This document shows positions 12,001 through 15,000 of a stretch of 23,125 nucleotides of DNA, piece by piece. The stretch is from a virus (taxonomy: Duplodnaviria > Heunggongvirae > Uroviricota > Caudoviricetes). Position 1 is the first letter of the stretch. The number at the start of each line of letters is the position of its first letter. Position numbers: made by a program. The stretch lies in IMG/VR virus record IMGVR_UViG_2778261064_000008, one strand, 5' to 3'.

Positions 12001-15000
12001 ATCACGTTACTGTGATTTTCACACATAATCACTGTCTGTCCAGAATTGCAAAAAAAATGAATGGATGGAAATTTAAACCTGATTATATGGGCACACTGGT
12101 TCTGCATCGGGAAAATCACAATCTGATTCTCGACGGACATTTAAAACCAAACGAGCTTACCCAGTGATCCATTTGTTGATAATGCCCTGGCATTGATTCA
12201 GGTTATATCTCTCCTCATAAAAAAGGCCAGCGATTGAGCTGGCTCTGTTAATCGAGGCATTGCATCCTGATGTACTCCTGCAGGTAGTTAACCTGCGCGG
12301 TTATCTTGTCGATTCCACTTCGGAGACGGTAATAATTGAGTTCAGCATCTGCTGTAAGTCCTGAGCTTTCTCCATCGCCCATGCCGCTGGCTCCGGTCGT
12401 TGACTTTGCACAGGTGGCGGCGACTTGCAGGCGCTTACGCCCAGCAGAAACATCAGCACGGAGACTTTCAATAGTCGCGTTAGCATCAGCAAGCTCCCTG
12501 GTGTATCTGGCATCGAGTGCAGCAACATCACGCTGGCGCTGCTGTATGTCAGTAATGGTGGCGTTCGCCTGGCTGAGTTTTGTCTTCGCATCATCTCGCT
12601 GCTCTTTGTAGGTGATGGCGTTATCACGGTAATGGTCTGTTGCCAGCCACAGCGATCCACAACCAAGCAGCAGGACAATAATCACCACACACAGAACACG
12701 GTTCATATCCCCCTCACCCCACCAGCCCTGACAAAGTTAAGACGCGCCAGGCAGTGGAAAAGCAAATAGCAACCAGCATTAGTGAAAATGAAATGCCGAC
12801 GATTACACAGAGGATCTTCGCCAGCGTTATGAGCTTGTCTGACATGCTTAATCCTCTTCACGATTTCAACGCAATGACCAGTTTTGCCAGCCCATACAGC
12901 ATCGGAGACACAGCAATACCGACCGCCACCCACTTAATAGCAAAAGCCAGCGCTCTGCTGACGTCATCAGTTACAGGCGCTTTCAGTTCAAGGCCGTTTT
13001 TCATAGTCAACCTCAACAGAATTCGTTTATACTTCGCCATGTTCTCCCTTGCCTTACTCAAGGTCAGAAACACAAAACCCCGTTTGCGGCCAACAAACGG
13101 GGTTTTACTTTTATTCACTTAGTTTTTGCCAGTTCGCAGGATTTCGTGTTATCCGCCCGCGTTGGCCAACGTCATTTTTCAGCAAAATATTCTGCTTATC
13201 TGTCAATTCCCCAGCACGCCAGCGCACTTTCCTGATCTCGCCGGGATACCTGACCGTAGCAATTATTTGAGCGGATACGGCAGTCTCTGCCACCGTCCTT
13301 AATCCACCAGCGAATCGCTTCGCAGGCACCTTTTCGATCTCCTGCATTAATTCGTTTATAAAACGTCGACGGGAAACACTTACCGGGGCCAATGTTATAC
13401 GGACAGAATGACGCGATCCCCGCTTTCTGGGGTTCCGTCAGTGGCACTTTGATGTTTTTCTCCACCCATGCCAGCGCCTTATCACGTTCAATGGCGTTAA
13501 CCTGGTCGCATTTCTCCTTCGACAACTTCATGCCCGGGACGACAGGTTTACTATCCACCAGAATGGCACCGCGACAGATGGTCCAGATACCCGCGCCATC
13601 ACGGTATGCTGTTGTGTGGTTGCCTTCCTTTTCATCCAGAAACTGGTCAAGGATTTCAGGCGCAGAAGCACCTGCGGCAATCAGCGCCAGAACGGCAGCC
13701 GATAAACCATAGCGGAGTTTCCTGCTCATCAGCTTACTCTCCCCGCGCCGCCTTACGCCGGTCTTCTTTAATTTTGAAATACAGGTTCGTCAGGTACGTC
13801 AACAGACCAAACAGCAGACTCCCCAGTACGCCTATTGCCGCCCACTGAGACGGGGAAACCCTGTCCAGCAGCTGCAGGAACCAGTAGCCCGTCCCCACCG
13901 CTGACGTGGTGTATGACACACCTGTTGTGATTTTTTCCATCTGGTACATACCCCGTCTCCCGCAATCCGGAAGCTCACAACAACAAGAGGGGCATCAGCT
14001 CACACCGACAGCCCCTGCGCATGGTTACATCATCATTTCGCCGTCAGGCTGAGGCTCACTGCCACCATCAGGCTGAGACACGACACCATCTGAAACAGCA
14101 CTGTCACCCGCACCGTCTTCAGGCCCGGGAGCAGCCGGTACCCCCAGCAGTTCATCCAGAATGGCATCCACTTCAGCATCAAGACGCGCCTCAAGATTCT
14201 GACGAAGTTGCTGTTTCAGTGCGCTCCTGACTTCTTCAGAGCGCAGGACATCCTTCACTGCTTCAGCAGTGACCAGCGATTTTATTTCTGACATGGTATT
14301 TTCTCGTTGAAAGGTGTTGTTAAGAAAGTTGCTACGGAATGAGAGACTCTTCGGGTTTTGTTCCGGCTGACTGACTGGCGCTGATTTTCTCAGCGGCCCT
14401 TTTGTCAATCTGTCTGCGCCAGAAATCTCTCACGACTCTGTACCCACCAGAAAGAAGATACAGCACACAAACTGCTGTACAGAAATACAACATAATCAGC
14501 TGTAAAAATGTCATTATTCATCTCCATTATTGACATGGTTAATGCCTGCCAGTAAAAAAACTCCTGCATTTTTTGCTCAGCATATTTTTGCTAAGGATGT
14601 AGCGACCTCTGCCGCCGGTTCTGGCTCCTTGTTTTCCCTGCCCCGGCGGCATTTTTTTATCCTGCTTACGCGTTATTCACTTCCACTGTTATACTTTCAA
14701 TCAGCACCGTATACGTCGCCGCTTTTGTGATATCCGTTACACGTAATTTGTCTGCCGCAAAAGAACCTACCGGAGACTGCGACAGCATGAACGGTGCACC
14801 ATCCTGACCATCAATCACCGGCGTCACCTGAATGCTGTTATTACCGGCAAAACGGAAGCCCAGCGTATGCCATTCGTTGTCAAATGCGCCGAATGACCCC
14901 AGCTTCGTGTTCTGGTCAGCGTTACCCTTGTGGTACATCACGTTGAGGTCTGTGGCATCGCTCTGTACGTAAAACGACGCCAGCAGATTGTTACCGGCAT

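Follow-up and report, generated by a model that had tools for sequence, protein, structure and literature searches.

A mosaic slot of small, predicted membrane-protein genes behind a terminator-like hairpin between endolysin and Rz in lambdoid prophage lysis cassettes

The lysis genes of a lambdoid E. coli prophage were examined in IMG/VR record IMGVR_UViG_2778261064_000008, a stretch of 23,125 nt that was analysed as a whole and is referred to here as the window. The minus strand carries the whole lysis cassette in the order S-R-gap-Rz/Rz1, and the subject of this study is the gap of 489 nt (12707-13195) between the endolysin gene R and the spanin gene Rz. In minus-strand order, this gap contains a conserved leader of ~90 nt, a hairpin and two small open reading frames (ORFs), termed ORF-A and ORF-B. 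The cassette comprises:

13734-13949, minus strand: S21-type class II holin (pinholin-like), 71 aa; PF04971, 7.2e-33; 'class II holin family protein' in the Prokaryotic Genome Annotation Pipeline (PGAP)
13196-13729, minus strand: endolysin R, a phage lysozyme with a Gly/Ala-rich, signal-arrest-release (SAR)-like N-terminus; PF00959, 1.7e-24; phrog_7
13107-13195, minus strand: conserved leader from the R stop codon to the hairpin, with blocks shared by E. coli and Salmonella cassettes that have three different endolysin genes
13074-13106, minus strand: intrinsic-terminator hairpin with a 13-bp perfect stem, a 7-nt loop, an A-tract ahead of the stem and, after it in the lysis sense, the U-tract UUUUGUGUUUCU
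13042-13069, minus strand: predicted short interrupted stem UUCU..CCUUG[AGUAAGG]CAAGG.AGAA; minimum free energy (MFE) and centroid fold
12858-13040, minus strand: ORF-A, 60 aa, predicted tail-anchored small membrane protein of family A/D; phrog_1115, 4.7e-42; phrog_4493, phrog_3246; WP_071343009.1
12714-12845, minus strand: ORF-B, 43 aa, predicted single-pass membrane protein; phrog_4906, 9.7e-26; WP_001441792.1
12248-12706, minus strand: Rz i-spanin; PF03245, 4.9e-37; phrog_13, 2.3e-70
12301-12486, minus strand: Rz1 o-spanin in the +1 frame within Rz, from frame translation; lipobox LGVSAC
12226-12243, minus strand: second terminator-like hairpin directly after Rz, GCCAGC...GCTGGC followed by CTTTTTTATG

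A preliminary description had treated the gap as an insert between two genes that adjoin in canonical cassettes. Such adjacency was confirmed for the DLP12 and Qin prophages of Escherichia coli K-12, in which R and Rz overlap by 4 nt and the gap module is absent; the named small-protein homologs of K-12 (ynfQ, ynfR and others) are sited elsewhere in Qin and not between R and Rz. Within the Rz gene of the window, Rz1 exhibits the lipobox MLTRLLKVSVLMFLLGVSAC followed by a Pro-rich stretch, and a 186-nt Rz1 is annotated at the matching relative position in Stx2a_WGPS2.

Selection in the correct frame and matches to PHROG families indicate that ORF-A and ORF-B are genuine genes. Among 22 unique full-length alleles of ORF-A from E. 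coli and Salmonella, the pooled Nei-Gojobori ratio of non-synonymous to synonymous substitution (dN/dS) was 0.18 in frame as compared to 0.92 and 3.5 in the other frames. The gene is preceded by a ribosome-binding site (RBS) of the form AAGGGAG-N5-ATG. The C-terminal half of the product is hydrophobic, with the best hydropathy window at residues 38-56 (score 1.9), and AlphaFold, supplied with the family alignment, predicted a short N-terminal helix and a long helix over residues 22-59 (predicted local distance difference test of ~88-91 at residues 31-60). The 60-aa ORF with a good RBS and a transmembrane (TM) helix that had been described earlier is hence a real gene under purifying selection that encodes a predicted membrane protein, but a second gene in the gap had been missed. 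This gene, ORF-B (MSDKLITLAKILCVIVGISFSLMLVAICFSTAWRVLTLSGLVG), has its own RBS (AGAGGA) and a predicted TM segment at residues 11-29 (hydropathy window of 2.86). Its stop codon lies 7 nt ahead of the Rz ATG and within the Rz RBS (GAGGGGG). ORF-B is more variable than ORF-A: dN/dS rises from 0.32 over codons 1-25 to 0.59 over codons 26-43, and the C-terminal tail has three alleles.

Both genes are annotated by PGAP as 'hypothetical protein' in identical E. coli genomes, and the matched PHROG families carry no assigned function. Searches of Pfam, NCBIfam and PADLOC produced no match for ORF-A, ORF-B or the families C and D described below, and PDB profile searches produced no relative of ORF-A or ORF-B. 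The alignment of ORF-A against 1.84 billion representative proteins gathered 19 members, all of one narrow family and none bridging to a known family, which restricts the ORF-A family to prophages of enterobacteria; almost all named homologs come from Escherichia or Salmonella. A scan of genome contigs with the ORF-A alignment yielded no confirmed match. The start of ORF-A differs between alleles. Salmonella and some E. coli alleles have 25 extra nt that create an 8-codon upstream ORF (uORF) whose stop overlaps a GTG start of ORF-A and, judged from these alleles, the version in the window looks like a deletion fusing the uORF ATG to ORF-A. A possible internal start, M13, is located at 13002-13004 with GAGG ahead of it. 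An 86-aa form of ORF-A with a GTG start (12858-13118) was rejected, as translation would proceed through the hairpin and relatives start at ATG or at the GTG after the 8-codon uORF.

Comparison across E. coli and Salmonella demonstrated that the gap region is both conserved and modular in the lysis cassettes of related prophages. A 601-nt query around the gap was covered to at least 80% in 989/5426 complete E. coli genomes. The leader and hairpin (13041-13195) were present in 1737/5426 of these genomes, in up to nine places per genome, and were never annotated. R-to-Rz intervals were then extracted from phage records, IMG/VR contigs and Salmonella contigs, giving 146 unique slots with the leader, among which the following architectures were found:

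Hairpin-A-B: 49 of 146 unique slots
Hairpin-C: 35 of 146 unique slots
Hairpin-C-B-A'-D: 15 of 146 unique slots
A alone: 11 of 146 unique slots
A/D chimeras: 9 of 146 unique slots
Ant-B, the typical arrangement of Shiga-toxin (Stx) phages: 8 of 146 unique slots

At least one small hydrophobic ORF was present in all 146 slots, a few of which were interrupted, and the last small ORF ended 1-10 nt before the Rz ATG in 134/146. The slots hold one to four interchangeable genes for tiny predicted single-helix membrane proteins (families A/D, B and C) or Ant, relatives being 28-50 aa in length. Family C (~45 aa; xDFSKLIRExR...WKFxLxWL...GQIRWW; phrog_6632) exhibited a dN/dS of 0.195 as compared to about 1 in other frames, and family D (28 aa) is related to the ORF-A helix and ends in IRWW. 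In the Ant-type slots of Stx phages, ORF-B is kept beside Rz. The gap is a mosaic slot and not a one-off insert: the presence of extra DNA relative to canonical cassettes had been described correctly, but this DNA is a widespread modular slot with shuffled content. Frameshifted or truncated copies of the small genes occur in some slots. Protein P0089 and the slots L004/L005 provide an ORF-B N-terminus fused to an ORF-A C-terminus and a 38-aa truncated ORF-A with a GTG start, and such fusion and truncation products indicate frequent recombination within the slot. In two IMG/VR sequences (L090/L092), the R-Rz slot measures ~1425 nt and contains an insertion of ~930 nt between ORF-B and Rz.

In Salmonella, ORF-A was located directly upstream of a PF03245 Rz gene behind an HP1-type holin and lysozyme, behind a P21-type holin, lysozyme and Ant-like gene, and behind a lambda-S-type holin and GH19 endolysin. 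This association with three holin/endolysin types points to Rz, and to no given holin or endolysin, as the linkage partner of ORF-A. In one Salmonella locus (L172) the leader and hairpin are separated by Ant, the hairpin sitting after Ant and immediately before ORF-A, which indicates that the hairpin belongs to the small-gene module and not to R. The same hairpin precedes family C genes in TL-2011c, Stx2_EH2201 and Salmonella SPN3UB. Two Salmonella loci contain an extra tiny hydrophobic ORF between the endolysin stop codon and the leader (L167, 2714-2812, MAAMICFVAAFMLACDGRSGWGWFLLVGLIVM; L176, 1649-1723, MAAAVAISGNDGWGWLIFAGIIIL).

The hairpin itself pairs AAAACCCCGTTTG (13074-13086) with CAAACGGGGTTTT (13094-13106) in 13 perfect pairs, and the stem reaches 15 bp in the minus-strand RNA through the addition of two G.U pairs. 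T-runs flank the hairpin on both sides, such that the U-tract is UUUUGUGUUUCU in the sense RNA and UUUUACUUUUAUU in the antisense RNA. The earlier placement of this element (11 bp; 13070-13112) was essentially right. The 160 nt around the hairpin folded better than 200/200 dinucleotide shuffles on either strand (z = -3.5 and -2.8). Among 15 distinct alleles, 97.4% of cells were paired, compensatory changes were observed at two pairs (U-G/U-A to A-U; U-A to C-G) and the covariation score was reached by 0/500 shuffles. By sequence, the GC-rich stem, the U-tract and the compensatory changes in relatives are those of an intrinsic terminator. The alleles contain 13 G.U cells in the lysis-sense hairpin that are A.C mismatches in the opposite RNA, and the sense hairpin was the more stable in 125/125 unique loci (means of -20.5 vs -15.4 kcal/mol). 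As both the G.U pairs and the compensatory changes fit the lysis-sense RNA only, the hairpin is selected in the sense transcript and is best read from its alleles as a sense terminator that is not symmetrically bidirectional. Of the 'strong bidirectional terminator' of the preliminary description, the strong terminator-like structure was upheld and is perfect on both strands in the window, but the G.U pairs of relatives serve the sense strand only. Both tracts that flank the stem (A upstream, U downstream) are nevertheless conserved from E. coli to Salmonella, and the hairpin may have a second role on the plus strand. A scan of genome contigs with the hairpin pattern was unspecific and returned generic terminators of unrelated phyla.

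In the MFE and centroid folds, the short stem at 13042-13069 pairs the Shine-Dalgarno (SD) sequence of ORF-A with a U-rich stretch just past the terminator. An analogous pairing (UUUCCU/AGGAGA plus GACU/AGUC) was identified by eye in C-type slots. If these folds form, the short stem would hide the first RBS in the slot. Toxic membrane proteins typically have weak initiation of this predicted, structured kind.

Within the leader, the blocks common to E. coli and Salmonella are GGATAACAC(G/A)AAATC as a small hairpin, AAAAATG and ATAAAAG(T/CG)AAAA. An 8-codon mini-ORF is conserved in position and a 12-nt palindrome occurs in some alleles. A leader peptide ending at the hairpin, in the manner of an attenuator, was rejected because the frame is interrupted in Salmonella locus L173. 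Rfam searches at the gathering threshold (window plus eight related loci) and at E <= 10 (12600-13300) detected nothing in the slot, the best sub-threshold matches at 12600-13300 covering the hairpin alone. The leader and hairpin (~13066-13195, minus strand) could be freed from the R 3' untranslated region, either when the late transcript terminates or when it is processed, as a stable small RNA (sRNA) of ~130 nt that acts in trans. Conservation of the leader blocks in E. coli and Salmonella behind different endolysins would suit such an RNA, as would the A-rich, ARN-like tract and U-tail flanking a strong terminator and the unannotated state of this segment in 1737 genomes. However, no promoter was found for it, no Rfam family matched, no Hfq peak is listed there in E. 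coli O157 Sakai, and the Ant gene separates leader and hairpin in Salmonella L172, such that a trans-acting sRNA is regarded as highly unlikely. Decay of the ORFs and hairpin into remnants devoid of function is extremely improbable: some copies are indeed frameshifted or truncated, but purifying selection is found in the correct frame only, the stem has compensatory changes, the Rz junction is preserved, and the module occurs in one in three E. coli genomes as well as in Salmonella.

Expression of the slot has to be considered in the context of the late operon, upstream of which lies:

17342-17875, minus strand: Q antiterminator gene; PF06530

Beyond Q, the order is an STnc100 element, a SASA esterase gene and the lysis genes, and the terminase and P22-type portal genes are found downstream, past a convergent Ais/PmrG-like gene. 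With Q upstream and the terminase and portal genes downstream, the late transcript must pass the hairpin, and the position of the second hairpin right after Rz means that a transcript heading for the terminase genes must pass 12226-12243 too. A consensus scan of 12100-14100 detected no sense-strand promoter-like site. The pR' late transcript of lambdoid phages passes terminators as Q-modified polymerase, and unmodified polymerase should stop. Q-dependent read-through of the hairpin is, with a Q gene upstream, the natural expectation; the earlier suggestion of a terminator within the cassette that is read through with the help of Q is supported to this extent, the read-through being predicted.

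The gap is tentatively interpreted as an accessory, Q-gated module for lysis that encodes small inner-membrane proteins in 21/Stx-type lambdoid prophages, a reading that we place a little short of an even balance. In a lysogen, or with Q-free polymerase, the terminator would stop transcription after S-R and the small proteins and spanins would remain silent. Following induction, Q-modified polymerase would pass the hairpin and ORF-A and ORF-B would be made with Rz/Rz1, translated at low, structured rates and inserted in the inner membrane. The peptides could then modulate the end-game of lysis, altering the time of triggering by perturbing or buffering the membrane or acting on the membrane-anchored spanin. 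The analysis shows the anatomy of the slot, its conservation, selection on the reading frames and on the sense-RNA hairpin, the physical coupling to Rz and the presence of Q; we infer Q read-through, membrane insertion and an effect on lysis, which could be either a delay or an acceleration. A lysis regulator, as put forward earlier for the small protein, is plausible on this reading. The constant architecture with changing content across slots counts for a lysis module, and ORF-A and ORF-B lie within the lysis cassette with no sense promoter found and with translation signals abutting Rz. Also in its favour are the PHROG matches and dN/dS values of the small genes, their predicted membrane helices, the movement of ORF-A together with Rz, the upkeep of the sense-RNA hairpin by compensatory and G.U changes, the upstream Q gene, the gene order of phage P2 and the occurrence of leader and hairpin in 1737/5426 E. 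coli genomes.

Several observations weigh against this interpretation. The canonical cassettes of DLP12 and Qin work without any such gene, the association of ORF-A with three holin families argues against a specific holin partner, and the ORF-A family is very narrow (19 representatives/1.84 billion proteins). No paper on these proteins, the hairpin or the slot was found in a literature search in which most subscription journals were outside coverage. A slot that is also home to a non-lysis gene, Ant, could simply be a permissive insertion site, and highly variable content with frameshifted or truncated copies fits dispensable cargo. Furthermore, a divergent ORF-A homolog, ahead of which there is again an A-tract, a hairpin and a U-tract but in another sequence, was found after tail-fibre genes and outside any recognised lysis cassette.

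In the main alternative reading, the R-Rz junction is a permissive recombination slot collecting moron-like cargo (superinfection exclusion, anti-defence or host-membrane modulation) and linkage to Rz reflects recombination boundaries only. Occupation of the slot by Ant in many Stx phages, the shuffled order of one to four genes from three families with truncated copies, the absence of the slot from K-12 cassettes and the stand-alone ORF-A homolog with its own flanking hairpins are all in favour of cargo, and the conserved leader could serve as a recombination 'linker'. A classical moron, however, brings a promoter of its own and is active in the lysogen, whereas the scan detected no promoter in the sense direction here, so that expression depends on the late transcript. 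A PADLOC search was without matches. In 134/146 slots the small genes still abut closely on the Rz RBS, and ORF-A remains beside Rz across three holin/endolysin types, which also speak against cargo. Both the collection of cargo and the reduction of the Rz linkage to recombination boundaries are considered somewhat unlikely.

A further candidate element was found on the opposite strand:

13004-13033, plus strand: sigma-70 promoter-like site TAGTCA-18-TATACT, antisense and within ORF-A codons 3-13

This was the sole promoter-like site in a 2-kb scan, with a 9/12 match to the consensus and 1.6 sites expected by chance. The hypothetical plus-strand RNA of ~75 nt (~13040-13115) would cover the ORF-A start and SD, end at the hairpin and fold as a 5' hairpin plus terminator; with a conserved promoter-like site at a suitable distance, the plus-strand small RNA suggested in the preliminary description may exist. 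Equivalent sites were present in all 66 unique A-type slots, in all eight others (seven of A/D type and one with a C-type motif) and in 40 of 50 unique C-type slots as compared to ~0.1 in mononucleotide shuffles, these counts being derived from related sequences and hence not independent. The sites were 33-37 nt from the hairpin, or 59-60 nt in the presence of the uORF insert, and those of C-type slots have the extended -10 TGCTAAAAT. ORF-A codons 3-9 were nucleotide-invariant in 22/22 alleles, and synonymous diversity (pS) was 0.097 for codons 1-16 vs 0.255 for the rest of the gene.

One explanation is a unit resembling type I toxins, in which the ~75-nt plus-strand RNA would block translation of a toxic membrane peptide from leaky transcripts until late transcription overwhelms this RNA. 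The P22 sar RNA acts in this way on ant, as do Sok and SymR on their toxins. Such a unit would account for the promoter-like site and for equivalent sites similarly spaced from the hairpin although the first genes belong to two unrelated families, as well as for the invariant codons 3-9 and low pS at codons 1-16. The conserved A-tract and U-tract around the stem constitute a bidirectional architecture, the plus-strand RNA has the fold of a 5' hairpin and terminator, and the peptides are like type I toxins in size and hydrophobicity. Conversely, the promoter consensus is matched at only 9 of 12 positions and about one such site per 2 kb is expected by chance, the slot counts come from related sequences, G.U pairs weaken the plus-strand stem in 125/125 loci, no Rfam family matches in the slot, and the constraint on these codons could come from the internal start M13 or from mRNA structure. 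Tree et al. 2014 (Table S2) list Hfq-CRAC (cross-linking and analysis of cDNA) candidates for E. coli O157 Sakai, none of which fell in the two Sakai slots checked, a weak negative given that both slots are of the Ant-B type and the cells were uninduced. From their coordinates, the remaining listed Sakai Hfq peaks appear to lie outside R-Rz slots. EcOnc11 and EcOnc12, which are strong Hfq-CRAC peaks (Sakai Sp10, L418, ~2320-2368; Sp9, L419), map ~75-120 nt downstream of Rz and antisense to the late operon. Overall, antisense control of the type I kind is judged unlikely; it is compatible with the lysis-module and cargo readings alike. A combination of both forms of control in Stx-type and other lambdoid prophages of E. 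coli and Salmonella, in which interchangeable peptides (families A/D, B and C), doubly locked like a type I toxin by a Q-dependent terminator and a cis-antisense RNA ending at that terminator and freed late in infection only, make up a fourth class of lysis-cassette component that tunes or triggers holin firing or the spanin step, is decidedly unlikely but would, if true, also influence the timing of Shiga-toxin release.

Other features were noted in the window and in related loci. The holin gene exhibits dual starts (M1-Y-Q-M4 at 13941-13949, minus strand), an arrangement typical of S21 with its 71/68-aa antiholin/holin forms, and R21-like SAR endolysins have been described in Stx phages (PMC8136144). 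A match to the STnc100 sRNA family (16805-17003, minus strand) directly downstream of the Q gene is probably the short pR'-tR' transcript region, and the Salmonella loci L167, L172 and L173 have between one and three copies of STnc100 ahead of their holin gene. An Ais/PmrG-like gene for a lipopolysaccharide (LPS) core heptose(II)-phosphate phosphatase (11553-12167, plus strand; NF011945, 2.9e-60), situated between Rz and the terminase genes and convergent to the late operon, is likely to be an LPS-modifying moron. Two tandem C4-antisense/isrK RNA pairs (20146-20333 and 21759-21947, minus strand), each upstream of an ORF6N/P22_AR_C antirepressor-like gene (19409-20092; 21014-21724), look like a duplicated P1-c4/Gifsy-isrK-type module. 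Finally, a match to the Sok antitoxin RNA (RF01794; 22985-23125, minus strand) that is cut by the window end implies that a locus of the hok/sok type borders the prophage region.

Of the life-history traits open to tuning by a phage, the timing of lysis is the main one, and for Shiga-toxin phages lysis is the exit route of the toxin from the cell. To our knowledge, the lambdoid S-R-Rz/Rz1 cassette is regarded as fully inventoried, and we know of no description of a terminator placed between R and Rz. A conserved terminator with rotating tiny membrane proteins occurs inside this textbook cassette, and does so in roughly one in three complete E. coli genomes, many of which have it in several of their prophages. 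Should the proteins modulate triggering or the spanin step, they would offer new and testable handles on lysis timing and toxin release; should they be toxic peptides guarded by antisense RNA, the logic of type I toxins would extend into a phage late operon; and if they are cargo only, annotation would be corrected from an empty spacer to two real genes and one regulatory hairpin. The protein families are already known from PHROGs and as 'hypothetical' gene calls, and the kinds of element, namely accessory lysis proteins or morons and Q-operon terminators, are known too, so that no new category is involved.

The hairpin resembles tR' and the downstream late terminators of lambdoid phages in having a GC-rich stem and U-tract downstream of a Q gene, and it would be passed by Q-modified polymerase only. 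It differs from tR' in that it is tied to the small-gene module and sits between R and Rz, not in a promoter-proximal position. The genes resemble lambdoid morons (bor, lom, and Ant in the Stx slot) as extra genes between conserved neighbours that vary among relatives and have a terminator hairpin nearby; among collinear relatives the slot varies and is absent from DLP12 and Qin, as expected of morons. Unlike morons, the genes have no sense promoter of their own that could be found, the terminator precedes them and the last gene is fused to the Rz RBS; by sequence, the combination of an own promoter and a downstream terminator is lacking and the genes run into Rz.

With hok/sok, symE/SymR, tisB/IstR, P22 sar-ant and lambda OOP, the slot shares a small hydrophobic peptide, and it would share an SD that is predicted to be sequestered and a predicted cis-antisense RNA of ~75 nt that covers the translation start and ends at a bidirectional terminator. 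ORF-A (60 aa), ORF-B (43 aa) and relatives (28-50 aa) have the size and hydrophobicity of type I toxins. The slot differs from type I loci in its lack of a detected sense promoter, its location within a late operon and an antisense RNA that is predicted only, and no Rfam antitoxin family matched the slot (ohsC at E = 0.61 only).

As small, predicted inner-membrane proteins, ORF-A and ORF-B are comparable to the lambda S107 and S21-71 antiholins and to the second TM domain (TMD2) of pinholin S21-68, the S forms being lysis-timing factors. A motif, xVGxxxS, is common to the ORF-A helix, the ORF-B helix and S21 TMD2, but hhalign comparisons of ORF-A with the S21 holin and with ORF-B were not significant (probability of 4-12%), and the resemblance to pinholin TMD2 is treated as a lead and not as evidence. 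The second in-frame start of ORF-A, M13 preceded by GAGG, recalls dual-start holins; unlike dual-start antiholins, ORF-A and ORF-B are separate genes downstream of R, and ORF-A also occurs with non-pinholin holins. No homology to a known antiholin or holin family was detected by Pfam, NCBIfam or PDB searches, and the PHROG families are functionally unassigned.

A positional precedent is provided by phage P2, in which the gene order is Y-K-lysA(antiholin)-lysB-lysC, with K encoding the endolysin and lysB/lysC the spanins on either side of lysA (PMC3091744). As in the slot, a late lysis operon holds an accessory membrane-protein gene between its endolysin gene and its Rz-like spanin genes; P2 LysA is thought to set lysis timing (PMC3091744). 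LysA is unlike the proteins of the slot, as four TM domains are predicted for it and it is unrelated to them in sequence. P2 is also not lambdoid and has no upstream terminator, whereas the slots described here contain one to four interchangeable, predicted single-helix proteins of 28-60 aa.

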